51,631 nt of DNA from a virus (taxonomy: Duplodnaviria > Caudoviricetes). Both the position numbers and the translations under genes were made by a program. Shown here in pieces: positions 1-49,822 of this stretch (position 1 is its first letter; each line of letters opens with the position of its first letter). The notes under the pieces are model-generated. The model searched no databases. It had not been told where the DNA came from and saw only the letters and a list, made by a program, of their open reading frames with translations. The stretch is from the IMG/VR virus record IMGVR_UViG_3300048849_000172, positions 1-51,631 of that record, one strand, 5' to 3'.

Positions 1-381
1 TTACAATTCCGGCGAGTTTACAGGGCGGTTGCCAGCCTCGATCGCTGCTTCTGCCTCGCGCTCAAGCTGGTACCGCAATCCGATTAAAGCGCCGTTCTCA
101 TTCCATCGCGGCGCAAGTTTTCGGATGTATTCGCGCTCCAGCGCCAGGAGCATTTCGGGTTCGCATGGGATCCAGTGCCAAGCCTGGAATTTCCGCGTTC
201 GGGCATGCTGGGCGACCCTCGCATAGACGTCCGTCGATTGCCCGACGTACATCACCTCCCTTTGGTAGATCAGGAAGTAAACACCTGATCGAGAACTAGG
301 CCATGGCACTGCCTTTTCGGCTATTTTGTCGTGCCCCAGGAGCCGATGCCGGCGCTGATACTTGCGAGGTCGTTCGCTCAT
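1..381 (-). CDS. GIY-YIG nuclease family protein
   Basis: SGVYFL-x7-YVGQS...R..QH and LEREYIRKLAPRWN match GIY-YIG motifs; overlaps integrase 3' end. Confidence 0.75.
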   Translation of the reverse strand: MSERPRKYQRRHRLLGHDKIAEKAVPWPSSRSGVYFLIYQREVMYVGQSTDVYARVAQHARTRKFQAWHWIPCEPEMLLALEREYIRKLAPRWNENGALIGLRYQLEREAEAAIEAGNRPVNSPEL

Positions 382-1522
382 CTGCTTCCATCTTGGCCTT
401 CGCCGCTGCTCTTCCGGTCACACCCGAGGCTTTGGTCCGATTCCCGGAAGCCTCCGCTTCCGACAAAATTCCTCCGAAGATCGTGACCAATTGCTCGGCA
501 GCCTCGCGCGCCAGGTCGTAGCCGATCGCTCCGCGGGTATAGACCTCATACTGGGCGTCGCTTTCATGGCCCGTGAGGCTGCGACCCGTCGGGCTGGATA
601 CGCCTGCCATGGTGAGGGCGGTCGGGCCGGTGGCCCGAAGGCCGTGGAGCGTGTACCGCGGTAAGCCCAGCCGCCGGAGCATGCGCCGCAGCATCTCCTG
701 GGCATTGCTGAGCGTCCACGCCTCAGCGCGTGGTGTGGCAAGCAGCACATCCTCCCGCCGGCCTTTCATGGCGGCGAAGGCGGCTGCGAGGGCATCAGGG
801 ACGTGCAGGACCATGGGCTTGTCGGTCTTGCTCTGGACAAAGGAGAGCGTCCTTGCGTCCTCGTTGTAGGCGGCCGGCCGCATGGACGTGACGTCCCCGC
901 CACGCTGGGCGGTCAGCAGGTAGCAGAAGAGCAGGGCCCGGAACTCGGGGGTCGCCTCTCGCAGGACCGCCAGCAGCACTCCTCGGGGCCAGGGTCGATT
1001 CTGATCCGACTTCCCCTTGACCCGGAGCCTCTTCACCTCGGCAAGCGGGCTCGCGGGCAGTGCCTTGGGGTGAAGCCTTCGGTAATGCGCGATGACGAGC
1101 TGCATGTGTGACTTCAGCCGATTCCAGTCGGCCGGGCGCGCCCCGTATTTGGCCCGCAGCGCCTCCCACCAGGGCGAATCCAGATTCGCGAGCTTCAGGG
1201 GGCCGAATTTGGCCCGGAACGGCTCCAGCGAGTGCCGGTAGTGGCGCTGAGTAGCAGGGGCGAGTTGCTGAAAGTCGGCACCGCCCAGATAGGCGGCTAT
1301 TGCTGCCTCTACCGTGCCATCGTCCGGCCGCTCGCGCTTCGGCCCGGCCTCATAAAGGGCATGGATTCGGTCGTAGGCAGCGAGGAAGGCGGCGCTTCCC
1401 TCCGGGCTTGGCAGCGGCGTCCGCTTCTCGTCGCGACGGTAATAGAGATAGACCCGATCACCCTTTCGGATTGCCTGGACGTGGGGAAGCCTGCCGCCGG
1501 AGCGGGGGTGGGGTGAAGTCAT
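296..1522 (-). CDS. int: Tyrosine recombinase / phage integrase
   Basis: TAQRGGD (box I Arg), QSKT, HGLRAT (HxxR), LTGH...EVY catalytic residues; start set at ATG 1522 (ORF open to 1591). Confidence 0.93.
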   Translation of the reverse strand: MTSPHPRSGGRLPHVQAIRKGDRVYLYYRRDEKRTPLPSPEGSAAFLAAYDRIHALYEAGPKRERPDDGTVEAAIAAYLGGADFQQLAPATQRHYRHSLEPFRAKFGPLKLANLDSPWWEALRAKYGARPADWNRLKSHMQLVIAHYRRLHPKALPASPLAEVKRLRVKGKSDQNRPWPRGVLLAVLREATPEFRALLFCYLLTAQRGGDVTSMRPAAYNEDARTLSFVQSKTDKPMVLHVPDALAAAFAAMKGRREDVLLATPRAEAWTLSNAQEMLRRMLRRLGLPRYTLHGLRATGPTALTMAGVSSPTGRSLTGHESDAQYEVYTRGAIGYDLAREAAEQLVTIFGGILSEAEASGNRTKASGVTGRAAAKAKMEADERTTSQVSAPASAPGARQNSRKGSAMA

Positions 1523-1787
1523 CAAGGGCTTCCATGGCGGCGTTCCGGGCCGCCTCATCCTGTTGTGTGGGGGCGAGGGCGTCGAGTCCATAGAGGCGGC
1601 CGGTCACTGCCTCCAACTCGAATCGATGCCAGCGGGGCATCTCCACCGGAGCGAACGCCCTGGGTGGCGGAAAGACCTGCGCCTTCACCAATGCGCGAAA
1701 ATCCCGGCGGGTGTAGCCGGTGAAGCGCGCGGCCATGGTCTCGTCCATGAGGAGCGGCCAGCCGGGCAGGGAGGAGCCGTCAGGCAT
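1458..1787 (-). CDS. Excisionase-like winged-helix protein
   Basis: WPLLMDETMAARFTG...FPPP...RWHRFELE pattern typical of Xis/AlpA; directly upstream of int. Confidence 0.7.
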   Translation of the reverse strand: MPDGSSLPGWPLLMDETMAARFTGYTRRDFRALVKAQVFPPPRAFAPVEMPRWHRFELEAVTGRLYGLDALAPTQQDEAARNAAMEALDDFTPPPLRRQASPRPGNPKG

Positions 1788-2911: not shown

Positions 2912-3588
2912 GCGGCCTCCAGTGGCCGATCGCCGGGAAAGTCGTCATCAGCAGGCGCCTTGTCCTCATCGCGGGGCAGGGCATCCAGCGCGGCCGACAC
3001 CGCCTGATCCACCTCGGCCGCCAGCTCGGGCCGCTTGGACCGCAGCCAAGCCCGCTGCTCAACCACCTTCGGATCGCCCGTGATCGCCTCCAGCACCTCG
3101 GCGCTGTCGGCGTCCTTGATGCGCTGGATCAGGGCGTGCGTAACCTCCACTGCCTTGTCCTGCTTCGGCACGGCGGCGCTATCCCGCTGCTGCGGCGCTC
3201 CTCGTAGCGGCTTCACCACGTAGGGTGCGCGCCGCGCCTTCGTCACCGTCAGCGCCATCACCATGTCCCGCTCGATGTGCGACATGTGGCTGATGCGGAT
3301 GCCGCCCACCTCCATGCCGCCAAAGGCCACCTTGGGGTCGCGGTAGAGCGTCATGGAGCGGCCGCTGTACTGCGCAGCATCTGCGCCCCAGGCGGCGATC
3401 ATCACCCGGCGCATCGACTTGCAGGGCAGGTATGGCTTGCCCTCGTCGCCCTCGAATGAAATCGCGACGGGCTGCTCGCCATTTCCGGTGCCGCCCACCC
3501 GCGTGATGGTGATGGTGCGCGGCCCGGCAATGAGGTCATCGGCATTGATCTGGTTGCTCTTCGGGGCAACCGTGGTGGACATGTCCAT
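2908..3588 (-). CDS. Conserved phage protein, candidate ssDNA-binding/annealing partner of the exonuclease
   Basis: PKSNQINADDLI...GGIRISHMS; translationally coupled to YqaJ gene; acidic DDDFP near the C-terminus. Confidence 0.6.
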   Translation of the reverse strand: MDMSTTVAPKSNQINADDLIAGPRTITITRVGGTGNGEQPVAISFEGDEGKPYLPCKSMRRVMIAAWGADAAQYSGRSMTLYRDPKVAFGGMEVGGIRISHMSHIERDMVMALTVTKARRAPYVVKPLRGAPQQRDSAAVPKQDKAVEVTHALIQRIKDADSAEVLEAITGDPKVVEQRAWLRSKRPELAAEVDQAVSAALDALPRDEDKAPADDDFPGDRPLEAA

Positions 3589-4280
3589 CAGATCACCATC
3601 TCCTGTTCGATGCGTCGTTCGGTTGGGATGAGGCGGGCGCCGGATTTGCAGGTGGCCCGGTAGCGCGCGAGCTTGGCGACGAGCCGGGCCTCGAAAGTCG
3701 CCGAGGCCTCAAGAATGGCTTCCTGCACCTTCGGGTCTGGGAACACGCGGACGGTCACCATGGGCAGGCCGCCGCAGTAGCTGATGAAGTCGATCCATTG
3801 GCGCTCGGACACGAGCAGACCGGTCTGCACCTGAAGGACGAACTCCTCCGGGATGATGCCCTCCGGCAGCAGGTCCGCGATGGTCTGCACCTGGAACTTG
3901 GCCCGCCGCGACTTGCACTCGATCGCGCCGTCCTCATTCACCAGCCCGTCTGGCGAGTAGCCAAGGCGGAACCCCCACTTGTCATTGGTGATAAAGCCCA
4001 TCTGCTGAACCGGGCCGTAATGCTCGGCGTAGAGGTCGCGGGCGTAGATCTCATCAACCTGACCGCGGAGCATGTCGTCGCTCTGGTAGTGGGGCTCGAC
4101 GTAGCCGGTCAGGCGCTGGGCAGCGAGCTCGCAGAGGTGCGCACGCTCCTTGTCGTTGCTGGCGACCTTCAGCGTCGGCGTCAGGATCAGCTTCATTTCC
4201 GAGGCGGTCAGCAGGCCGCAGCGCGCCTGCAGCCATTCCTCGGAACCCTGCACGAGGTCGGGGTAGTAGCGGATGCCCAC
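3588..4280 (-). CDS. YqaJ / lambda exonuclease family recombination nuclease
   Basis: QGSEEWLQARCGLLTAS, YSPDGLV, IECK, QVQTGL motifs. Confidence 0.92.
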   Translation of the reverse strand: MGIRYYPDLVQGSEEWLQARCGLLTASEMKLILTPTLKVASNDKERAHLCELAAQRLTGYVEPHYQSDDMLRGQVDEIYARDLYAEHYGPVQQMGFITNDKWGFRLGYSPDGLVNEDGAIECKSRRAKFQVQTIADLLPEGIIPEEFVLQVQTGLLVSERQWIDFISYCGGLPMVTVRVFPDPKVQEAILEASATFEARLVAKLARYRATCKSGARLIPTERRIEQEMVI

Positions 4281-4404: not shown

Positions 4405-4718
4405 CACGCCACGTCCTCCATTTCCTTAGCGATCCGGTGCGCCAGTCTGTCCATCCGGACGAGGTTGCGATGCGCCCAGCGCGCGATCCGTGCCTGCTCC
4501 GGCGACGCGCTGCCGTTCTCGACGCGCTCCTGCAGACGGCCCAGCACGTTCTCCAGCCGCATGTCGGTCTCGCTGCGGTTGTTGATGGCGATGCCGAGCG
4601 TGAAGAGTTCGTCGTCCAGGGCGGCGCAGGCGTCAGCGGCGCGCTCGTGGCGCAGATCCCGGCTTGTCGGCGAGAGGCTGCTCGGGGCGGCAGTCTCGGG
4701 GCGGGTGTAGGCGTTCAT
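4404..4718 (-). CDS. Hypothetical phage protein
   Basis: 104 aa, GGAGG RBS, coupled to neighbours. Confidence 0.6.
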   Translation of the reverse strand: MNAYTRPETAAPSSLSPTSRDLRHERAADACAALDDELFTLGIAINNRSETDMRLENVLGRLQERVENGSASPEQARIARWAHRNLVRMDRLAHRIAKEMEDVA

Positions 4719-5500
4719 TGCGCGTCCTCCTTCCCCGGGGACGCGGCGGCGGGGTGGGTGAACTTCTGTTCGGCGAGCACGCAGAGCAGCGAGCAGTCCA
4801 TGTCGGGCTCCTGGTCACCGGCACCGGCGTCGGCCGGTAGCTCGTCCAGGAAGATCCGCTCCTTGTGCAGCTCGACCAGTCGGCAGCCGATATCTCGCGA
4901 CAACTTGGCGCGGCGCTCGAACACGTCTGGGAAGTGTCGGCGGACACGGTTCCAGTAAGCGGGCGAGGTGGCCTTCACACAGCCGATGCAGTTGGCGTTC
5001 TTGAAGCCCAGCCGGTACATGGCCGGTATTTCAATGCCTGCGCGGTCGGACATTCCCAGGCAATCGGCCTTCCGCAGCCTTTCGCTAATCAGCGGCGAGG
5101 CGAGTTTTACCTCCGGGTTTCCGGCCTTGAAGCGGTCTACCCGATCCTGCTCCTCGGCCGTGTAGCCGAAGACCTGAAGGTCGGGTCGGAACTCGCGCTC
5201 GAACGCCCAGCGCACCGCCTTCTTCATCTCGATGGTGCAGGGCGCGCCATTCGGGCCGGCCATGTAGCGACGCTTCGACCAGACCTCCTCGCAGCTCGCG
5301 TATTCGGCGCTGCGAAGGTTCAGTATCGGGCGGCCGAACCACTCCTCGCAGTCGGCGGCGAAGCGGTCATTGTCCTCGTGCTCTTCTGGGACGATGCAGC
5401 GAGCAACGACCACCTCTTGGTTGTGATAACGGGCCAGGGCGAGCCTCGTAGCTACGGCCGAGGCAGCGCCGGCGCTGAACCAGCAGACGATCCGCATCAC
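4715..5500 (-). CDS. PAPS-reductase-like / PP-loop family protein with probable Fe-S cluster
   Basis: WFSAGAASAVA PP-loop variant, PCTIEMKK, NANCIGCVKA, DCSLLC cysteine motifs. Confidence 0.75.
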   Translation of the reverse strand: MMRIVCWFSAGAASAVATRLALARYHNQEVVVARCIVPEEHEDNDRFAADCEEWFGRPILNLRSAEYASCEEVWSKRRYMAGPNGAPCTIEMKKAVRWAFEREFRPDLQVFGYTAEEQDRVDRFKAGNPEVKLASPLISERLRKADCLGMSDRAGIEIPAMYRLGFKNANCIGCVKATSPAYWNRVRRHFPDVFERRAKLSRDIGCRLVELHKERIFLDELPADAGAGDQEPDMDCSLLCVLAEQKFTHPAAASPGKEDAQ

Positions 5501-5862
5501 GCCCCTCCCTTCCTCACCCCGTCGAGGGCGGCGCGGAGTTCTGCATCGAACATGGACGCGACCTTGAGGGCTTCCGGGCTCAAGGCTGCTGCGCCGGTGT
5601 CCTCACCAAGCATCTGCGACATCGACACGCCGAAGGCTCGCGCGAGGGCCTGCACCATGTGCACCGTCGGGCTGCGTTGCCGGCATTTCTCAATTGCCCA
5701 GATGTGGGACTTCGACGTGTCCGCGCGGGCGGCAACCTCGTCCAACGTCAGGCCACGCTCTTCGCGATACTGCTTCGTCCGGGCGGCGATGGTCCGCACA
5801 AGATTGCATAGCCTCGCCTCATCCAGCTCCGCGGCAGGTGGGGTGGGGGAGGGGGTGGTCAC
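5497..5862 (-). CDS. XRE-family HTH regulator
   Basis: REERGLTLDEVAARADTSKSHIWAIE...SPT...LARAFGVS; GTG start overlaps upstream TGA. Confidence 0.85.
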   Translation of the reverse strand: MTTPSPTPPAAELDEARLCNLVRTIAARTKQYREERGLTLDEVAARADTSKSHIWAIEKCRQRSPTVHMVQALARAFGVSMSQMLGEDTGAAALSPEALKVASMFDAELRAALDGVRKGGA

Positions 5863-6119
5863 TGCTGCGCCTCGAACAGGTCGATCAGCGCCTGCAGATC
5901 GCTCGCCTCGGCGGTGTGATGCGCCTTCGTCCGTGCGCCTACTGCGTGCCATGCCCAGAAAAGCTGCTGCACCTTCTCGCGGCGCAGGATCCGCACGAGG
6001 TTGGCGCGCTGCTCCAGCGTCAGGCGCTGCTCGGGGCGGAGCTGCTCGGCAGCGACGGCGTCCAGCATCCGCGCGACAGGCGGCGCGGGACGGGTGAGGG
6101 TGCTTTCTGCGGCTTCCAT
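5859..6119 (-). CDS. First gene of leftward early operon, hypothetical
   Basis: 86 aa, GAGGA RBS, just downstream of predicted PL. Confidence 0.6.
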   Translation of the reverse strand: MEAAESTLTRPAPPVARMLDAVAAEQLRPEQRLTLEQRANLVRILRREKVQQLFWAWHAVGARTKAHHTAEASDLQALIDLFEAQQ

Positions 6120-6162
6120 GGGTGGGTCCTCATCCCGGCCGGGTTGGCCGGTGGTGAGGGAG

Positions 6163-6215
6163 AGTGTGGTATAGATACGCTACACCGTCAAGGTGATGGT
6201 GTAGGATAGATACAC
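6163..6215 (-). promoter_or_regulatory. PL-like promoter with two repressor operators
   Basis: Minus strand TTGACG (6191-6186)-N17-CACACT (6168-6163); operators GTATAG-N5-CTACAC 6169-6185 and GTGTAG-N5-ATACAC 6199-6215. Confidence 0.75.
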
Positions 6216-6349
6216 TTTCGCCTTTGACGACCCATCGATTGATCGGCTGGGTGGGACAAGTTCCCCTACACTCCGGGCACTGAAGTCCCCGCCGGCCGGG
6301 GCGGGCGGGGTGGGAAATTTGGCAAACCTGCCGAACTAAGTAGCGGCCA

Positions 6350-6436
6350 AGCCCCGGCCCCTGCTGGCCTTCTGGGCGCGGGCTTTCCTGAAGATCACTG
6401 GGCCCGGCCGGAGCGATCCGGCTGGGCTCTTGTTGT
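6350..6436 (+). ncRNA. Candidate sRNA copy A with intrinsic terminator (5' end unknown)
   Basis: Repeat of 6932-7018; conserved GGCTTTCCTGAAGATCACT; 11-bp stem with GCGA loop and T-rich tail. Confidence 0.5.
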
Positions 6437-6533
6437 GGGGCGGCTCATGCAGGGTGCCGGGCAACCGAGGAAAGTCCGGATCATCTGGACGGAATGCACC
6501 CGTCCAGTCTGGGCGCGGTCTGTTTCGACGGTC

Positions 6534-6668
6534 TCAACTCGCCCTGCGTAGACGATCCCCCGCTGGGCTCTTTGAAGCCCAGCTATCGATCAGAATAGCG
6601 ATGACCGGGGTCAGGAGCGCCCAGGCAGGCAGGATCATCAGCGCGACAATGGTGGCGGCACGCATCAT
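6534..6668 (-). CDS. 44-aa single-TM peptide
   Basis: Own translation MMRAATIVALMILPAWALLTPVIAILIDSWASKSPAGDRLRRAS; GGAGG 5 nt upstream. Confidence 0.6.
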   Translation of the reverse strand: MMRAATIVALMILPAWALLTPVIAILIDSWASKSPAGDRLRRAS

Positions 6669-6709
6669 GGAAGCCTCCAAGGGCTTCACCCTCGCACCCT
6701 GCTATATGG

Positions 6710-6847
6710 GTGGGCTGGTAGGCCGCTCAACCAGAAACCCAGGTCTGCGCAGATGCGTTCGGGTGCCGTCCCTTCACGCATGGGACACTTCCCCTCAAGT
6801 GATAGTTTACCTCGCCCGGCGGGCCGATCCCCGCCGGGCTTTCTTCT
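6710..6847 (+). ncRNA. Candidate sRNA with C-rich loop and terminator
   Basis: Hairpins GTCCC..GGGAC and CACTT-CCCCTC-AAGTG (6786-6801), then 10-bp GC stem 6814-6839 plus TTTCTTCT. Confidence 0.45.
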
Positions 6848-6894
6848 GCCCGGGTAGAGGGGCGGGCGGGGTTGCGGGGAAAGAAACGGTACAG

Positions 6895-7018
6895 AAAGCG
6901 GTCCCAAACCTCGCTGGATGGGACGCGTTCGAGCCCCGGCCTCTGCTGACCTTTTCAGCAGAGGCTTTCCTGAAGATCACTCGGCCCGGCTGGAGCAATC
7001 CGGCCGGGCTCTTTTTTC
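6895..7018 (+). ncRNA. Candidate sRNA copy B with intrinsic terminator
   Basis: Three hairpins; last is 11-bp stem with GCAA loop plus T6; paralog of 6350-6436. Confidence 0.55.
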
Positions 7019-7121
7019 TGCGGCTGGCAGAGTAGTCGGGATAGGGATCGGTCGCGGCAGATTGTCCGTCCCAAGCCAGCGTCATCCTGGTTTTGGGCTG
7101 ACGGTCCGCGCATACAGGGGC

Positions 7122-7301
7122 ATGGACCCTACGGGACGCGCCGCTGATGCAATTCTGGACCTCTTGGCCGGTTCGTTGGACGAGTGCGCGAGGGATCTAG
7201 CCCAGGGCGACGTACCAGCCGCTCAGAAGAGGCTGGCCGAGGTTATGGACCAGTTGCGGCGGATTCGCCGGGATCTCAGGGAAGAGGGCGGTTCGGCGTA
7301 G
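7122..7301 (+). CDS. Small helical hypothetical protein (59 aa)
   Basis: MDPTGRAADAILDLL... amphipathic helices; part of ORF 6918..7301. Confidence 0.5.
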   Translation: MDPTGRAADAILDLLAGSLDECARDLAQGDVPAAQKRLAEVMDQLRRIRRDLREEGGSA

Positions 7302-7527
7302 AGTCCCTGAGCAAGGAAGGTCCGTCGGTCAGGGTGGAGAGGCCTAATACTTTGCGACAGGCTCCTGTTGGGGCGAATGCACTCCGCTATCCCGCGCGTG
7401 GAGCGGGACTGCTCATGCTCATTCGGCCTGATCTTGGTCCAGAGAGCTAGCAGCTCTTAAAGATCGGCGAACCGGGCTAGTGCCTGAAGTTCCTGGTTCC
7501 GGGTGAGGGGGACGCGAGGGTGGGTCA

Positions 7528-7686
7528 CTAGGCCTCATCGGCCAGCGCCCTAGTCAGCGTAAGCAGGATCTCGCGCTTCTCGGGGTTGAGCTTCGCCCAC
7601 AGGATCATGAGCTCTTCTTCCTCCGCCTGGATGGCCGGAGGCGCCAGGTCCTCAGCACACTCGACAGGATGGGCGTGTTCCTTCAC
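7528..7686 (-). CDS. 52-aa micro-protein, candidate SOS-controlled antirepressor
   Basis: Own translation (V/M)KEHAHPVECAEDLAPPAIQAEEEELMILWAKLNPEKREILLTLTRALADEA; LexA box upstream. Confidence 0.55.
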   Translation of the reverse strand: MKEHAHPVECAEDLAPPAIQAEEEELMILWAKLNPEKREILLTLTRALADEA

Positions 7687-7722
7687 CGGTATGTTCCTGC
7701 CGTGTCAAATTTTTGGACTCGT

Positions 7723-7737
7723 GTTCTTGTTGTGTTC
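7723..7737. promoter_or_regulatory. Alphaproteobacterial LexA (SOS) box
   Basis: GTTC-TTGTTGT-GTTC exact GTTC-N7-GTTC; TTGACA on minus strand at 7708-7703. Confidence 0.7.
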
Positions 7738-7801
7738 CCTTCATCCTCCCGTGGTGGTTGAGGCGATTCGGGAGGTTTGTGCGTGGAAGTCGGCATCCGA
7801 T

Positions 7802-8143
7802 TCAGGTCTTTTCGTGCGCCTTGGGATCCGGCCCCTGAGAAGCCGCCAGTGTGGCTGTCATCTCCGCATCCAGTTCCTTCGCGAGACGAGATGGAAGAGC
7901 CGACCAATCACCCAGGAACACGTAGTTGAAGTCCACCCCCTTGGCTCGGGCGAGGCGGTAAACGGCATACACTCCGGGTGGGTTGTCGCCCGCCATCCAG
8001 TTGCGGAGGACGTGCTTGGACACCCCCATCAGTGAGGCGGCTTCGACGTAGGATAGACCCAGCAAATCGATAAGCTTCCGCAGGCGAGCGCCGGCGGCGG
8101 CCTGGAAGTCAGACTGGGCCAAGACAGGAACGGCATCGGACAT
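7802..8143 (-). CDS. CI-like XRE repressor lacking S24 peptidase domain
   Basis: GARLRKL...LSYVEAASLMGVSKHVLRNWMAG HTH; divergent from cro-like gene; only 113 aa. Confidence 0.8.
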   Translation of the reverse strand: MSDAVPVLAQSDFQAAAGARLRKLIDLLGLSYVEAASLMGVSKHVLRNWMAGDNPPGVYAVYRLARAKGVDFNYVFLGDWSALPSRLAKELDAEMTATLAASQGPDPKAHEKT

Positions 8144-8192
8144 GCCGTATAGCGTGCCTTAACGCCGCGACTTTGGCGGTGAAGGAAAGTCC

Positions 8193-8228
8193 TTGCGGCG
8201 ATAGTGTAGCCAAACTACACTTCCGACA
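8193..8228 (+). promoter_or_regulatory. PR-like promoter with perfect operator
   Basis: TTGCGG (8193)-N17-TACACT (8216-8221); palindrome AGTGTAG-CCAAA-CTACACT 8203-8221; ATG 7 nt after the -10 box. Confidence 0.75.
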
Positions 8229-8473
8229 TGGGCGAAACGATGGACATTGCGGCCCGGCGCGAAGGCGCTGAGAAGGCCATCAGGGCAGCCGGTACGATCA
8301 CCGGGCTGGCTGAACACCTCGGACTGACCAAGGGCGCGATCTGGCAGTGGCGTAAGAGCGGCATCCCCGCTGATCGCGTCGCCGATGTGGCCGCCGTCAC
8401 GGGCATCCCGGCCGCCGAGCTGCGCCCCGATCTCGCCAGGGTGTTCGCGTCCGAACCGGAGCGAGCCGCCTGA
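8228..8473 (+). CDS. cro: Cro-like (YdaS-type) regulator
   Basis: AIRAAGTITGLAEHLGLTKGAIWQW...GIPAAELRPDL signature. Confidence 0.88.
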   Translation: MGETMDIAARREGAEKAIRAAGTITGLAEHLGLTKGAIWQWRKSGIPADRVADVAAVTGIPAAELRPDLARVFASEPERAA

Positions 8474-10855: not shown

Positions 10856-12092
10856 CTACCTGAGCAATTATGCGGGCCTGCGGGCGCAGATCACCGGGCA
10901 GCCCGCGCTTGGTGTGCGGGTGGAGCAGGCGGACACCCCCTTTCAGGTCCGCCCCGCCAGCTTACGCGACCCGCGCAGGATCCCGCCCCGTCCTTGGCTT
11001 TACGGGCGCATCCTGGCTCGCCGGTACATCACCGTGGTGGTCGCCCCAGGCGGGGTCGGCAAGACCTCGTGGACCTTCGGTGTGGGCTGCTCGATAGCGC
11101 GGGGTCGGGGCATGCTGGGTGACTTCGTCCACGCCCGGGCCAACGTCATCTACTGCAACCTGGAAGACCCGGAAGACGAGTTCGACCGGCGCTTGGCCGC
11201 ATTCGCCCTGCACCATCGGTTCGACCAGGAAGAGCTGCGGGACCGCATACACGTCGCCCACGGACGGGAGCGCCGGCTGACCCTGGCCTCCCTGGACGCG
11301 GACGGGGTGACGATCGTCTATCCGGACAAGCAGGCCGTCATCGACGAGGTGAAGCGGACCCAGGCTGGCCTGATCATCGTCGACCCCTTCGTGAGCAGCC
11401 ACGAGCTGGAAGAGAACAGCAATCCTCACATCAACGCAGCGGCCCGTGCCTGGGCCGAAGTGGGGAATGAGGCGAACTGCGCCATCCTGCTCAGCCATCA
11501 CACACGCAAGGGAGCCGTCGCGGGCGACATCGAGAGCTCCCGTGGCGCTGTGGCGCTCACCAGCGCCGCACGCGCCGGCTTCACCCTCACAGCCATGACG
11601 GAGGATGAAGCCAAGGAGTTCGGCATCCAGGAAGGCCACCGGAAGCGCTACGTCCGTCTTGACGAGGGCAGGGGCAGCATGGCCCCGCCGGCCGACAAGG
11701 CCCGCTGGTTCGAGCTCGCGAGCGTCAACCTGGGCAATGGCACCGACGAGTACCCCGATGGCGACAGCGTCCAGGCCATCGCTGAATGGGAGCCGCCTTC
11801 CGTTTGGAAGGAGCTATCGCCGCAGGACTGCAATGCGGTCCTCGACATCATCCAGGCCGGCTTCGGCGAGGGGCAGAAGTTCACTGCCACCCGATCCGGC
11901 AAGTCGTTTGAGACCGGTCGTTGGGCGGGCTGCGTGCTCATGCAGCACCACGGCCTGAACGACACCCAGGCGGCGAAGGTGATCAAGACCTGGGTCTCCA
12001 ACCGGGTGCTCGAAGAGGTGACCTACCGCGACCCGGTGCAGCGGAAAGAGGTCTCCGGCCTGAGCGTGAACAACGCCAGGAGGCCCACATGA
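10845..12092 (+). CDS. RecA-fold AAA (RepA/SF4-like) replicative helicase
   Basis: Walker A APGGVGKT, NLED, Walker B LIIVDP, SHHTRK, SRGAVALTSAAR. Confidence 0.88.
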   Translation: MPGDYLSNYAGLRAQITGQPALGVRVEQADTPFQVRPASLRDPRRIPPRPWLYGRILARRYITVVVAPGGVGKTSWTFGVGCSIARGRGMLGDFVHARANVIYCNLEDPEDEFDRRLAAFALHHRFDQEELRDRIHVAHGRERRLTLASLDADGVTIVYPDKQAVIDEVKRTQAGLIIVDPFVSSHELEENSNPHINAAARAWAEVGNEANCAILLSHHTRKGAVAGDIESSRGAVALTSAARAGFTLTAMTEDEAKEFGIQEGHRKRYVRLDEGRGSMAPPADKARWFELASVNLGNGTDEYPDGDSVQAIAEWEPPSVWKELSPQDCNAVLDIIQAGFGEGQKFTATRSGKSFETGRWAGCVLMQHHGLNDTQAAKVIKTWVSNRVLEEVTYRDPVQRKEVSGLSVNNARRPT

Positions 12093-12100
12093 TGACGCAA

Positions 12101-12271
12101 GAACGGCGCGCAGAACGGCGCAAGAATGGCGCACTTTGGACCACCGAGGGGCGGCTTGCGCCGTTGCGCCGTTCCTCCGGCCCAGAGGGCCGGGGGGAAC
12201 GGCGGCGAAGCACGGCGCAGCACGCCGCCCCCGAGGGGGAACGGCGCAGGGAATGGCGCAAGAACGGCGCA
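12101..12271. repeat. Iteron-like repeat cluster, putative replication origin
   Basis: About 10 copies of GAAYGGCGC(A), direct and inverted, directly after the helicase. Confidence 0.6.
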
Positions 12272-12285
12272 GGAGTAATGGTCTA

Positions 12286-12519
12286 ATGCCCCGCCCGCCC
12301 TGGAAGTCCCCGACGCAGGAGAAGCCGCGCGCGGCTGGCCTCGACTGGCACCGGGTGGACCGGGCCGTGGATCTGCTGCGGAGGGGCGCGACGGAGGGCA
12401 AGGGCCCGGCCGGGATGATCGCCCTCATCATCGACGGTCGAGCCGAGAGCAGCTTCCAGCCGGCCACGCTCAAGGCTGCGAAGGCGCGGCTGGCCGAGGA
12501 GGTGCTGTTCCATGGCTGA
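12286..12519 (+). CDS. Hypothetical protein
   Basis: AGGAG RBS, MPRPPWKS... Confidence 0.55.
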   Translation: MPRPPWKSPTQEKPRAAGLDWHRVDRAVDLLRRGATEGKGPAGMIALIIDGRAESSFQPATLKAAKARLAEEVLFHG

Positions 12520-12730
12520 CCTCACCCCAGCTGAGTTCGGCCGCCAGGTCGCCCGACAGGAAGCTGCGTACGTCTTCGATCGCCTGCTGTTCGACATGGA
12601 CATGTCGGCCCGTGCCCAGGCAGCCACGGGCGTTCCGTTGGCGCCCGATGACGCCGTGTTCGTCGCTGCCAAGAGGGCGTTCCTCCAGGCCATGCACGAC
12701 CGGCTGGGTGGGAAGGGGGAGGGGACGTGA
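12512..12730 (+). CDS. Hypothetical protein
   Basis: GGAGG RBS, 72 aa. Confidence 0.6.
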   Translation: MADLTPAEFGRQVARQEAAYVFDRLLFDMDMSARAQAATGVPLAPDDAVFVAAKRAFLQAMHDRLGGKGEGT

Positions 12731-12815
12731 CCGGCCGGCCCCACCGCCTCAGCCGCGAACGCTGCCAGCTCCGCGACACCATTCGAATGACTAGAAATAA
12801 CGAGGGAAACCGTTG

Positions 12816-13376
12816 ATGGCGCGTCGTAAGCAGAAGCGGGCCGTGGCCTTGGCTCTCGTGGGCGACTATGGCCCGTCCATCCGGCGCGGGAAGGCGTCCG
12901 CAGGGCTTCCCAAGGCCGTGGAGGTCGTAGACCGTCCGGACCCGGAGGCGCCGCAGGGCGTGTCTGTGCGCGGCGCCAGGCGGGTTTGCTACTACGACGA
13001 GCTGTGGCGCCGCGGCACGATCGACGATGCCCAGCGCGAGGCCTGCGACCGCTACCTGATGGAGAGCGAGATGGAGCAGGGCGCGCGGAACCGGCCAATC
13101 ATCTCCACCGGCCGGACGCCGCCTTGGCAGCACGGGCATCCCGCCGAGATGCAGGTCAGGGCGGCTGCCAGCCTCCGCGGAGCGCGGGCCGCAGTTGGAA
13201 ACAACGGCCGGGCACTATGCGATCTGCTCATCGTGCAGAACCTGTCCGTGCGGAAAATTTCAGAGCGGAGAAAGAACCGGGAGGGCAAGCAGGAGGATCA
13301 GAAGCAGACGATGGGGCAGGTTCAGGCCACGCTCACCCGCCTGGCTGAGCACTGGCGAGTGAGCAGTCGACGCTAG
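12816..13376 (+). CDS. Putative late-gene regulator (Q-like position, C-terminal HTH)
   Basis: LWRRGTIDDAQREA..Y and LIVQNLSVRKI...LTRLAEHW; last early gene. Confidence 0.6.
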   Translation: MARRKQKRAVALALVGDYGPSIRRGKASAGLPKAVEVVDRPDPEAPQGVSVRGARRVCYYDELWRRGTIDDAQREACDRYLMESEMEQGARNRPIISTGRTPPWQHGHPAEMQVRAAASLRGARAAVGNNGRALCDLLIVQNLSVRKISERRKNREGKQEDQKQTMGQVQATLTRLAEHWRVSSRR

Positions 13377-44730: not shown

Positions 44731-46089
44731 ATGACCCCCGAACTTCTCGACCGCTACAAGCACCTCTTTGGCTATGCCGCCGGCACTACGGGCGGCCTGG
44801 GCGGCAGAACCGTCAACTGCGCGACCGGCGATGAGGTGCAGGCCGCGATCAATGCCAAGGGCGAAGAGCCGCTGATTATCAACCTGACCGGCGCCATCAG
44901 TGGGGCGAATACCAAAGCCGCGCAGATCGATATCTCCGGCAAGCGTGACATCACCCTGATGGCGGACGGGGAGGGGCAGGATTTCTCCGGCGTCGGCATC
45001 CGAATCAACAAGGCCAGCTCAAACATCATCCTGTTCAACCTGAAGGGCGGTCAGATTTCAGAGGGCGGCAAGGACTGCATCGGGATCGAGGGCGACTGCC
45101 ACCACATCGTGGGCCTGCACCTCGACCTCTCTGGCGACATGTCCAAGGGCAAGGACTACTATGACGGCCTCGCGGACACGAAGCGCGGCAGCCACTCCAT
45201 TGCCTTTGTCCTCTGCAAGTTCAGCAATCACCACAAGGCGTGCCTAAACGGGTACTCCGACAAGGACAGCGAGAACGCGGACAGGAAGCTCACCTTCGCA
45301 CTCTGCTGGTGGGACAACTGCGGCAGCCGCTGCCCGTCTGTCCGGTATGGCGAAGCCCATGTCTGGGGCTGCGTGCTGTCCGACATCGAGACCTCCGGCG
45401 TGAACTGCCGGATGGGCGCGCAGGTGCTGATCGAGGCCACCACCTTCGACAAGGTCCACAACCCGATCTGCGCTCTCGACAGCGCCAAGCCGGGTTTCTG
45501 GAACATCGTGGACTGCGCCGCCCCGAACTGCACATGGGGCAAGCCCAGCGCGAACGAGCCGTTGGCGGTGGACATGAAGCCCACCTGCGACTTCCGTCCG
45601 CCCTACACCATGCCGGCCATCACCCGGGCCCGGGCCGCCGGGCTCGTGCAGGAAGCTGCGGGCCTGCTGCCGCCCGGGAAGGTGGTGGCACTGCCCGGCG
45701 CCTCGGACCAGCCCGCGCCCGAGCAGCCGCAGCAGTCCGTGGAGGAGCCGCCTGCGGCCGAGCCCGACCCGGTGGAGCAGCCCGGCGGCCCCGAGACGCC
45801 GGCCGAGCCTGAGCAGCCGGCACCGGTGGAGACGGAAGAACCGGCCGAAGCCGAGGCTCTGCTGGACCAAGCCGAGGACGCGCTGATGAACCTGCGCGTG
45901 ATCCTGGCAAAGCTGGCCGCCGAGCCGGAAGAGCCGGCCGCGCCCGTATCCGACCCGGCTGGCCTCCTGGCCCTGATCGATGGCGCCACGGCTGCGCTGG
46001 AGAGGCTGCCGGAGACCAAGCCCCGGAAGAATGCGCTCGACTACATGCGCAAGGGTAGGGACCAGGCCGAGAAGGCGCTGCGCGGGTGA
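44731..46089 (+). CDS. Pectate lyase-like (PL1) beta-helix protein with Pro/Glu linker
   Basis: GYAAGTTGGLGG, SNIILFNL, DCIGI, YYDGLAD, SRCPSVRYG.AH motifs; no signal peptide. Confidence 0.85.
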   Translation: MTPELLDRYKHLFGYAAGTTGGLGGRTVNCATGDEVQAAINAKGEEPLIINLTGAISGANTKAAQIDISGKRDITLMADGEGQDFSGVGIRINKASSNIILFNLKGGQISEGGKDCIGIEGDCHHIVGLHLDLSGDMSKGKDYYDGLADTKRGSHSIAFVLCKFSNHHKACLNGYSDKDSENADRKLTFALCWWDNCGSRCPSVRYGEAHVWGCVLSDIETSGVNCRMGAQVLIEATTFDKVHNPICALDSAKPGFWNIVDCAAPNCTWGKPSANEPLAVDMKPTCDFRPPYTMPAITRARAAGLVQEAAGLLPPGKVVALPGASDQPAPEQPQQSVEEPPAAEPDPVEQPGGPETPAEPEQPAPVETEEPAEAEALLDQAEDALMNLRVILAKLAAEPEEPAAPVSDPAGLLALIDGATAALERLPETKPRKNALDYMRKGRDQAEKALRG

Positions 46090-46649
46090 TGGGTACCTTC
46101 GAAAGACAGATGGCGGAGACCTCCCTCACCGAGGGAGGTTACGTCAACGACCCGCTGGATCCGGGCGGCGAGACGAACCACGGCATCACCGTCGCGGTCG
46201 CCCGGGCTTTCGGATACCGCGGCGCCATGCGGGATCTCACGGCTGACATGGCGCTGGAGATCTACCGGGCCCGCTACTGGATCCAGCCCTCCTTCGACCA
46301 GATCGACCCCATCCATCCCGAGCTGGCGGCCTGGCTGCTCGACACCGGCATCAACATGGGTCCGGCCGCGGCCGGGAAGATGCTGCAGCGCTGGCTCAAC
46401 GCCCTGAACGACGGCGGCCGGCTCTATCCGGACCTCGCCGTGGACGGGATGTGTGGGGCCCTGACCCGGCACGCCCTAACCGTCTTCCTGAGCGTCCGGG
46501 GATCTGAGGGGAGGGACCTGCTGCCCCGCCTCTGCCGCTCCCTCCAGGCCGCGCGCTATCTCGAGATCGCGGAAAAGACCCCCAGCCAGGAGCGGTTCGA
46601 GTGGGGGTGGGTCAAGCGGGCGTTGCGGACGGCGGCCCTCGTCTCGTGA
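46086..46649 (+). CDS. Endolysin, glycoside hydrolase family 108 with PG-binding domain
   Basis: EGGYVNDPLDPGGETNHGIT, YRARYW, DTGINMG, F.WGW. Confidence 0.93.
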   Translation: MMGTFERQMAETSLTEGGYVNDPLDPGGETNHGITVAVARAFGYRGAMRDLTADMALEIYRARYWIQPSFDQIDPIHPELAAWLLDTGINMGPAAAGKMLQRWLNALNDGGRLYPDLAVDGMCGALTRHALTVFLSVRGSEGRDLLPRLCRSLQAARYLEIAEKTPSQERFEWGWVKRALRTAALVS

Positions 46650-47919: not shown

Positions 47920-47945
47920 GGAACAGAGGCTCTGCTCCCGGCGTT
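47920..47945 (+). promoter_or_regulatory. Sigma-EcfG (general stress response) promoter
   Basis: GGAAC-N17-CGTT directly upstream of ORF at 47974. Confidence 0.65.
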
Positions 47946-47973: not shown

Positions 47974-48171
47974 ATGATCCTGGACGAGGCGCGGAAGCTG
48001 CGTGAGGAAGCGGCCATGTGTGTGAGGGTGGCGGACCAGATCAGCCTACCTTCAGACCAGGAAATCTTAAAGGACATGGCACGACGCTGCCTCGAACAGG
48101 CCGAGCGCATCGAACAGTCTTACAGTGTTCCGGGGCAGGCACCCGCCAAGGAGAGCAGCGGGCCGAGGTGA
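47974..48171 (+). CDS. Small helical-hairpin protein
   Basis: ARKLREEAAMC..VA...L..MA.R.L.QA..IE pattern. Confidence 0.6.
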   Translation: MILDEARKLREEAAMCVRVADQISLPSDQEILKDMARRCLEQAERIEQSYSVPGQAPAKESSGPR

Positions 48172-48899: not shown

Positions 48900-49097
48900 C
48901 GCCGGATCCTCTGTTCTCACAAAACTGTGTGTGGATGTAAATAAGCCGGATGAGGCGATCAACCCGCTGTGGTTGCAGCTCTGCCGTTTCAGGAGGCCTC
49001 GGCTGAGATCCAAGCTGCCGATGGGTGGCCGAAGCTGCCGGCCTGAGCGCTATGCCAGGTGACGCTGAATGCCACCTAGCGAGAGACTAAGGGGCGC

Positions 49098-49334
49098 TTA
49101 GTCGACCCAGCGCCCGATCAGCGACACGGTTGCAGTGTAGATGAGGCGACGATCTGCGTCTCTCACATCCATGATCACGGCATGCATGTCCCCGTCGGGG
49201 CGCTTTTCGTGAAGAACATCGTGCAGAGCCGCAATGCCGGCCGCCCTGGCTGCAGTGGGGCCGGGCAGGTTCAAGCCCACTGCGTCCTTGAAGTGTCTGT
49301 CGCTGTCGTGGGTGTCGCAGAAGAACTGGGGCAT
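49098..49334 (-). CDS. DUF6894-like small protein
   Basis: MPQFFCDTHD...D..G..LP...AAR; paralog of 49823..50059. Confidence 0.7.
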   Translation of the reverse strand: MPQFFCDTHDSDRHFKDAVGLNLPGPTAARAAGIAALHDVLHEKRPDGDMHAVIMDVRDADRRLIYTATVSLIGRWVD

Positions 49335-49822
49335 CGATAGGTTAGGTGCTGAATTGCGAAGAGGCGCAAGCACATAGATCATCCTCGCCTTGCCGGCGAT
49401 CCCTGATCGGCTGGGACGCCGGGTGTGCTGGCGGTCGCGTGGCTGGTCCGGGGGGCTTACTAGGGTAGGAAGACTTGCGCCGCGAATCTCGGACCCCCTA
49501 CATACCCGACTAGGCGCCGCTGACCGCGCGGTCCGAGGGGCTGGCATCCCCGATGACATGCTAGGGCGATCGCGTCCGTAAGATTTCGGAAAGGTCAGCA
49601 CGCAGCGGCCGGTGCCTCTGGGCTTGTCCCGCCTGGCGCCGGCGGCTCGTTTGCCTTCGGAGCTTACCGTCCCAATCAGCCCTGACGCCGGGCGCGCAGG
49701 TGGGGGATCTGTCCCCTATGCCCGCTGACCTCCTCCCCGAGCCCACCCGCCACGAGCCGCGTTTCACCGACCAGCAGGGCAAGTTCGGCGGCACGAACTG
49801 AGCGGGCCAGCGTTACAGCTTC

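Follow-up and report, generated by a model that had tools for sequence, protein, structure and literature searches.

The subject of this analysis is the immunity region of IMGVR_UViG_3300048849_000172, a virus of the Caudoviricetes (Duplodnaviria) that is represented in IMG/VR by a complete provirus record that is 51,631 bases long and has a GC (guanine plus cytosine) content of about 66%. This whole record is called the window below, and its host is probably a high-GC, alphaproteobacterial soil bacterium. A non-coding gap (6240-7020) separates the leftward early operon and its operators from the gene of a cI-like repressor. It contains three plus-strand units, namely the duplicated modules A and B and, between them, a further unit (unit 2). 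An earlier note, made from the DNA letters only, had described them as an array of prophage small RNAs (sRNAs) with a conserved seed acting on mRNAs of the host or of superinfecting phages. An sRNA is indeed the best single reading for unit 2 and module B, though a tentative one, whereas module A (unit 1 of that note) looks degenerate. The features of the region and of the left arm of the provirus are compiled in Table 1.

Table 1. Features of the gap and its surroundings; positions refer to the window, and RNAs, motifs and open reading frames (ORFs) are predictions
Feature	Position	Strand	Remarks
Module A	6343-6436	+	weak hairpin 6356-6384, 19-mer 6381-6399, terminator 6400-6429, tail TCTTGTTG
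Unit 2, predicted RNA of ~80 nucleotides (nt)	6767-6847	+	5′ hairpin 6768-6786, C/U-rich linker 6787-6813, terminator 6814-6839, U-rich tail
Module B, predicted RNA of ~82 nt	6937-7018	+	perfect 12-bp hairpin 6938-6966, 19-mer 6963-6981, terminator 6983-7010, U6 tail
ECF/EcfG-like motif GAAAC-N17-CGTT	6734-6759	+	upstream of unit 2
ECF/EcfG-like motif CAAAC-N16-CGTT	6905-6929	+	upstream of module B
Hairpin homologous to minus-strand intrinsic terminator	6287-6311	-	contains first GGGGCGGGCGGGGT (6298) as 3′ arm
Second GGGGCGGGCGGGGT copy, half-terminator remnant	6859-6872		partner arm missing
Orphan hydrophobic ORF of 44 amino acids (aa)	6534-6668	-	GGAGG ribosome site
59-aa ORF just 3′ of module B	7122-7301	+	no family at threshold
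Operator-like repeats, GTGTAG-N5-CTACAC type, 2 copies	6164-6216		start of leftward early operon; direct and inverted repeats
86-aa ORF	5859-6119	-	first gene of leftward early operon
cI-like helix-turn-helix (HTH) repressor	7802-8143	-	Pfam HTH_31/HTH_3/Phage_CI_repr; PHROG repressor families
Cro-like gene	8228-8473	+	faces cI-like repressor; YdaS/P22_Cro match over 8228-8470
HTH protein	5497-5952	-	left arm
Protein like 3′-phosphoadenosine-5′-phosphosulfate (PAPS) reductase	4715-5500	-	left arm
YqaJ-type exonuclease	3588-4280	-	left arm
Integrase	296-1591	-	left arm

Structure of the three units

Modules A (6343-6434) and B (6925-7016) are copies of each other with 83% identity over 92 nt. 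A BLAST comparison of the record with itself reports 85% over 85 nt (E = 6e-23), in agreement with the stretch of about 85 nt that units 1 and 3 were said to share. Divergence is concentrated in the 5′ part, where 11 of the 16 mismatches fall within the first 42 columns. Both copies contain an identical 19-mer ahead of the terminator, which is found exactly twice in 51.6 kb even if three mismatches are permitted (0.01 copies expected). In two relative proviruses the identical run measures 28 nt (P = 0.04).

The three plus-strand terminators claimed before were all recovered (6400-6429, 6814-6839 and 6983-7010), each with a T-rich tail; in unit 2 and module B the tails are U-rich and in module A the tail is weaker. 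A terminator scan of 5400-8000 calls six sites, compared with 1.8 ± 1.3 in shuffled sequences. The three on the plus strand lie within 620 nt and there is no plus-strand ORF to terminate. Of the 12 pairs in the terminator stem, two differ between A and B, both by a G-C/G-U exchange; the loops are GCGA and GCAA. This part of the earlier description (pairing-preserving changes and GNRA loops) holds, but the terminator type is generic and the covariation is not significant (see below). In total the stems of A and B show a single compensatory pair next to five one-sided G-U changes; two positions are broken in module A, and a third stem position is broken in every copy save module B of the window. 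The wobble changes in both stems are compatible with pairing on the plus strand only.

All folded units follow a common plan comprising a 5′ hairpin, a C/U-rich single strand of 16-27 nt and a terminator. Folded from its predicted start, module B (6937-7022) reaches z = -6.65 and unit 2 (6767-6850) z = -3.93, and in neither case was any of 200 shuffles as stable. For module A the fold z ranges from -1.0 to -1.8 against shuffles, the value from the predicted start being -1.8. As its fold is weak and its counterpart of the promoter-like motif is degraded (CAAAC-N16-CGGC), we read module A as degenerate and probably as a decaying paralogue of module B.

A unit related to unit 2 is found in the provirus L022 (= L028). 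There, a plus-strand non-coding unit of about 118 nt (fold z = -2.7) beside a minus-strand terminator ends in a unit 2-type terminator and, further upstream, can be loosely aligned with unit 2. A similar terminator ends a protein-coding ORF of 127 aa in L029. Searching with a 21-mer of the unit 2 terminator matched known contigs only.

Two shorter strings had also been described as duplicated, and both are: TGGGACA..TTCCCC over 14 nt at 79% and GGGGCGGGCGGGGT over 14 nt at 100%. GGGGCGGGCGGGGT, however, is an arm of a minus-strand terminator and not a part of a plus-strand RNA. Its first copy belongs to the hairpin at 6287-6311, which together with the A-run ahead of it was found in six other provirus contigs. 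The terminator scan calls this hairpin on the minus strand of L028 and L030; in the window, where the T-run has decayed, it makes no such call. Judged from its sequence, the hairpin closes the repressor/moron transcript and is no part of a plus-strand RNA. The second copy, at 6859, has no partner arm and is the mark of a recombination or duplication scar. A near-identical terminator hairpin of 24 nt after an A-run thus recurs in at least seven otherwise different provirus contigs (L024-L030; 6287-6311 in the window), which points to a terminator cassette that is shared or mobile and sits where morons begin or end.

Promoter-like motifs

Sigma-54 and sigma-70 promoters, sought by eye or by scan, gave no fit. 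Upstream of unit 2 and module B we found motifs that resemble promoters of extracytoplasmic function (ECF) sigma factors of the EcfG type. In the literature the general-stress (EcfG) consensus is given as GGAAC-N16-CGTT with a nearly invariant AAC, GCAAC being the second commonest -35 box (PMC7083833). SigmaT sites are defined as GGAAC/CGTT with a spacing of 15-17 nt, and sRNAs activated by EcfG/sigmaT exist in Alphaproteobacteria (PMC5869019). On both strands of the whole window the pattern AAAC-N16/17-CGTT occurs at only two sites (6735-6759 and 6906-6929, both plus), although this test is post hoc because the pattern was derived from these two sites themselves. About 8 nt separate the end of each site from the 5′ hairpin that follows, that of unit 2 or of module B. 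Additionally, a 20-nt repeat is common to the motif region of module B and the promoter region of unit 2. The shorter pattern AAC-N16/17-CGTT has seven sites in the window, including the two upstream of unit 2 and B. In the L022 unit GCAAC-N17-CGTT is found at the equivalent place, its spacing being retained despite an indel.

A perfect GGAAC-N17-CGTT is present elsewhere in the window (47920-47945, plus strand), and this means that the ECF promoter class plausibly operates in this host. A helical 65-aa ORF with a GAGG site follows 28 nt downstream (47974-48171, plus strand), close to the right-hand end of the provirus. The best Pfam match of this ORF, DUF6381, is below threshold (E = 0.042); it could be a stress-induced moron or a gene of the host flank.

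Coding potential, transcripts and putative targets

A plus-strand ORF of 201 aa spans 6430-7035. Its GC content at the three codon positions is flat (0.62/0.60/0.67), while the neighbouring genes have a third-position GC content (GC3) of 0.83-0.87. A coding region across 6130-7120 was rejected on the same grounds, the 201-aa ORF not being credible. The former statement that the gap has no convincing long ORF is supported in this respect, but it overlooked the 44-aa minus-strand ORF at 6534-6668.

On 5400-8400, contigs from two soil metatranscriptome runs (two studies) cover 7034-7510 and 7885-8123 at a depth of 2-4; their strand is undefined and carry-over of DNA is possible. They span the 59-aa ORF with a 200-nt downstream stretch and a part of the cI-like gene, and their cover fits a lysogen expressing the 59-aa ORF and parts of the cI-like gene. 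No contig covers 6240-7020, which is uninformative for RNAs of about 80 nt since contigs of ordinary libraries can miss them.

Duplex scans of the linkers against the whole window gave nothing beyond the background tail except self-antisense sites. The proposed seed is not supported by these scans, in which no phage target stands out. One near-complement at 48985-49000 was discarded because no gene starts there.

Distribution of the modules

In viral contigs the exact 19-mer was detected only in two proviruses of about 99% identity. All six matches in 185,579 species genomes and all seven in metagenome contigs are chance occurrences in unrelated sequence. A gapped motif that combines 9 linker nucleotides with the terminator loop gave 11 new matches, every one of them in coding DNA. 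By blastn the region has no match in phage and plasmid records, and 6120-7320 has four weak matches of at most 60 nt in 401 sampled genomes of the order Rhizobiales, the best being a terminator after an ordinary gene. With the flanking proteins as anchors (86-aa ORF, cI, 59-aa ORF) the same two to four proviruses were retrieved only, the homologues of the 59-aa ORF being restricted to the two near-identical relatives, and the cI family was not found in 401 sampled Alphaproteobacteria. A repetitive extragenic palindromic (REP)-like element of the host had been named as a trivial alternative. We rejected it since the genomes searched, to which the host's own does not belong, do not contain many copies, and in module context the 19-mer is found only in the near-identical proviruses.

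A covariance model built from A and B scores 110-121 bits on the two modules (121 on B). They are the only loci above 100 bits, and nothing else exceeds 47 bits. At E ≤ 0.01 the model matches 46 of 151 sampled Rhizobiales genomes with a top score of 46 bits, which belongs to a terminator; the best-matching genomic locus sits after the stop codon of an ordinary gene. All ten best loci (L044-L053) are hairpins with a GNRA loop (GCGA or GCAA), and most have a T-rich tail. The core GGAGC(G/A)ATCC is present in nine of these ten, and in each at most 12 of the 19 linker bases are matched. The hairpin of A and B (...CCGG-GGAGC(G/A)ATCC-CCGG...) is a common terminator type of the sampled Rhizobiales genomes. 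The loop context GGAGC(G/A)ATCC is in fact very frequent in their intrinsic terminators and can mimic a conserved structured RNA.

A comparison with Rfam, which had been proposed as a check, likewise identified no family. The best matches remain below threshold, i.e. anti-hemB RF02837 (23.0 vs 49.5 bits), SorX RF02784 (18.4 vs 46.6 bits) and suhB/MmgR RF00519 (17.4 vs 41 bits). These scores of 17-23 bits with assorted two-hairpin sRNAs reflect architecture only.

The accessory slot and neighbouring genes

In phage lambda the slot of rexAB and other morons lies between cI and the leftward promoter PL. The assignment of the gap to this position can be maintained: the leftward operon starts with the operators at 6164-6216 on one side and the cI-like gene follows at 7802-8143 on the other. 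A promoter scan indicates minus-strand promoter-like sites near the operators, at 6230-6203 and 6191-6163. Operators and minus-strand terminator are retained in L022 and in L023, whose repressors are 97% and 72% identical to that of the window; the operator palindromes are found there at 5790-5830 and 4885-4935, respectively. From the terminator to cI both proviruses carry minus-strand membrane-protein genes that end in small hydrophobic ORFs, a cargo quite unlike that of the window. In L029 the order is S24-type repressor, 197-aa membrane protein, 43-aa ORF and terminator. Since the cargo differs between related proviruses, this position is a variable accessory slot. As with rexAB, the map position is equivalent and the cargo varies among related phages; in contrast with rexAB, the cargo of the window is mostly non-coding and located on the strand opposite to the repressor.

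Some further observations concern the surroundings. The S24-peptidase-type repressor, the 197-aa membrane protein and the hydrophobic 43-aa ORF of L029 form one operon (11346-13094) before the shared terminator, a rexAB-like layout without family assignment. At 44731-46649 the window encodes a protein with a pectate-lyase domain, which is probably a tail depolymerase, and then an endolysin with GH108 and PG_binding_3 domains; a DUF6894 protein is encoded at 49098-49601. No tRNA or tmRNA was found, and the stretch 7302-7527 shows no structured RNA (fold z between -1.9 and +0.4). Antitermination sites of the nut/put type for the leftward operon were rejected because they would lie on the wrong strand.

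Interpretation of the units

An sRNA is the best reading of unit 2 and module B because both combine a terminator, a 5′ hairpin, a C/U-rich linker and an ECF-type motif at the right distance. Therefore we suggest, tentatively and with less than even confidence, that they are prophage sRNA genes of about 80 nt with an ECF/EcfG-type promoter, the linkers of which act on ribosome-binding regions of probably host mRNAs, and that module A is a decaying duplicate. The gap would then be an accessory (moron) slot, a part of which was duplicated locally, with two probably active plus-strand sRNA genes (unit 2, ~6767-6847, and B, ~6937-7018) and one decaying paralogue. A promoter xxAAC-N16/17-CGTT, of the class used by the alphaproteobacterial general-stress factor EcfG, would fire roughly 8 nt ahead of a 5′ hairpin that protects the RNA. 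The putative transcript would continue through a single-stranded C/U-rich linker of 16-27 nt (CUUUCCUGAAGAUCACU in B, CUUCCCCUC... in unit 2) and stop at a strong, U-tailed intrinsic terminator. As a presumed seed, this linker could block translation of target mRNAs, most likely those of the host, by pairing with their purine-rich ribosome-binding regions. If transcription depends on the stress sigma factor in this way, stress in the lysogen would switch on phage-borne regulators.

Several results weigh against this interpretation. Besides this provirus, only two relatives with about 99% identity throughout the region carry the modules, so there are no diverged homologues on which conservation and covariation could be assessed. 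In the available copies the covariation check, which had been recommended, is not significant: there is a single compensatory pair, and the observed score is reached by 83 of 500 shuffles. The two exact copies of the 19-mer are located where they were reported; as an invariant seed, however, it is not beyond chance for a duplicate this diverged, because an identical run of at least 19 nt has P = 0.27 when 16 mismatches are randomly placed in 92 columns. In Rfam 15 no model matches the window at gathering scores. A scan for sigma-70-like promoters on the plus strand found none, even at a relaxed 8 of 12 matches. The ECF-type motif has its own weak points besides its post hoc derivation: the boxes of unit 2 (GAAAC) and B (CAAAC) contain AAC and are followed by CGTT but are devoid of the consensus GG, AAC-N16/17-CGTT is not enriched in the window (7 vs 4.6 ± 2.5 expected), and the L022 motif is palindromic (AACG...CGTT) and fits either strand. 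For 167 candidate phage start regions the best linker pairing falls within the 1st percentile of the background. Finally, the terminators are generic and common to unrelated cassettes, as recombination relics would be.

That the units are such relics or insulators, i.e. a patchwork produced by exchange of moron cassettes and duplication at terminators and encoding no discrete functional RNA, is the main rival of this reading and in our estimation only somewhat less probable. Terminators with adjoining upstream sequence would represent leftover 3′ ends of lost genes and would at most stop stray plus-strand transcription running antisense into the repressor operon. In favour of this, the unit 2-type terminator ends a coding ORF in L029, and GGGGCGGGCGGGGT at 6859 fits as a half-terminator scar, the full hairpin being a minus-strand terminator in six other proviruses. 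In the same direction point the stem-loop of A and B as a generic type found after ordinary genes, the visible decay of module A, the wholly different slot content of phages with 97% and 72% identical repressors, and the failure to find a sigma-70 promoter, homologues or an Rfam match. Against this, module B has preserved its perfect 12-bp hairpin as well as a terminator with a U6 tail (z = -6.65), although the 5′ part of the duplicate has diverged. The promoter-like motifs at matching distances from two 5′ hairpins and the wobble changes that preserve plus-strand pairing also speak against relics, and the persistence of three same-strand terminators with nothing obvious to terminate is left unexplained.

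The 44-aa ORF raises the further possibility of a cis-antisense pair similar to type I toxin-antitoxin systems, which we regard as improbable. The ORF would encode a small membrane toxin, and RNA A (with B in trans) would pair with the 3′ untranslated region of its mRNA and control its stability. As no minus-strand terminator is called between 6534 and 6287, this mRNA would find none before 6311 and would run through module A, a convergent layout that would resemble 3′-overlapping type I systems. The ORF is small and hydrophobic, has a GGAGG site and is preceded by a promoter-like TTGAGC-N18-TATAGC at 6730-6701. On the other hand, its GC3 is only 0.71; 5.8 billion clustered proteins and 1.84 billion representatives contain no homologue but the ORF itself, which is present there on a contig of 513 kb, and it belongs to no Pfam family. 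L029 has a 43-aa ORF in the corresponding position, but the two show no similarity; in L004 the 44-aa ORF has one synonymous difference. Furthermore, its supposed partner would be the degraded module A, whose promoter-like motif and terminator are the weakest, and the small ORF of L022 has its own terminator and no overlap with the plus-strand unit.

Least probable of all, if only slightly less so, is a cis-acting leader in which unit 2 and B are tandem attenuators or terminators of the 59-aa ORF, with read-through (e.g., by a phage antiterminator) expressing the ORF and running antisense into the repressor operon: the three elements have the same orientation in tandem and the RNA-library contigs of two studies (strand undefined) that cover 7034-7510 begin just after the B terminator, but the start codon is 104 nt past the end of that terminator, no contig bridges it (uninformative at a depth of 2-4), neither an alternative antiterminator pairing in the folds nor an antiterminator protein was identified, and L022 has a homologue of unit 2 without the 59-aa ORF.

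Comparison with known systems

In kind, sRNA genes in unit 2 and module B would belong to a known class, the prophage-encoded sRNAs, the stress-sigma wiring being the only unusual element. In enterobacterial lambdoid phages this class includes svsR at the 3′ end of cI in E. coli (PMC12803456), the base-pairing DicF (PMC5069750) and the Pas sRNAs with the paralogues PasD1/PasD2 (bioRxiv 10.64898/2026.05.13.724894). They resemble the units presented here as short terminator-ended RNAs in or beside the immunity region, with paralogous copies and occurrence in narrow lineages. They differ in that no sequence or Rfam relationship exists and that the units here have a high-GC, probably alphaproteobacterial host and are known from sequence alone. 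In these sources we found no description of the ECF/EcfG-like promoter class for svsR, DicF or Pas.

With GsrN, an sRNA activated by EcfG/sigmaT (PMC5869019), the units share the proposed promoter class xxAAC-N16/17-CGTT and the form of a small structured RNA in which a C-rich pairing element is exposed. GsrN, in contrast, is chromosomal and usually located beside a stress-regulator locus, whereas the units here are found in a prophage; their -35 boxes are GAAAC/CAAAC instead of GGAAC, and no homology was detected. The sequence of 5′ hairpin, C/U-rich single strand and terminator is also that of the alphaproteobacterial two-hairpin sRNAs suhB/MmgR (RF00519) and SorX (RF02784), whose models align weakly over the full length; with 17.4 and 18.4 bits compared with gathering scores of 41 and 46.6 the units are not members of these families.

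Biological significance

In its most far-reaching form, the proposal is that paralogous sRNAs of about 80 nt in the rex-equivalent slot are wired to the EcfG of the host, so that host stress and not the phage repressor turns on these regulators. The affected process could be host translation, a superinfecting phage or the lysis-lysogeny decision. As a whole we consider this version doubtful. A search of the literature revealed no link between prophage sRNAs and the general stress response; the work found on prophage sRNAs concerns E. coli and that on EcfG concerns chromosomal genes.

If the units are relics, they are a clean example of moron slots rebuilt by recombination at shared terminators, and they show how generic terminators can imitate "conserved structured RNAs" when the sequence is read on its own. 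Should transcription of unit 2 and module B start at EcfG-type promoters, prophage sRNAs would be tied into the general stress response of Alphaproteobacteria. Lysogenic conversion by RNA would then reach soil Alphaproteobacteria as well, and two paralogues of about 80 nt with a clear promoter motif would offer a simple test bed.

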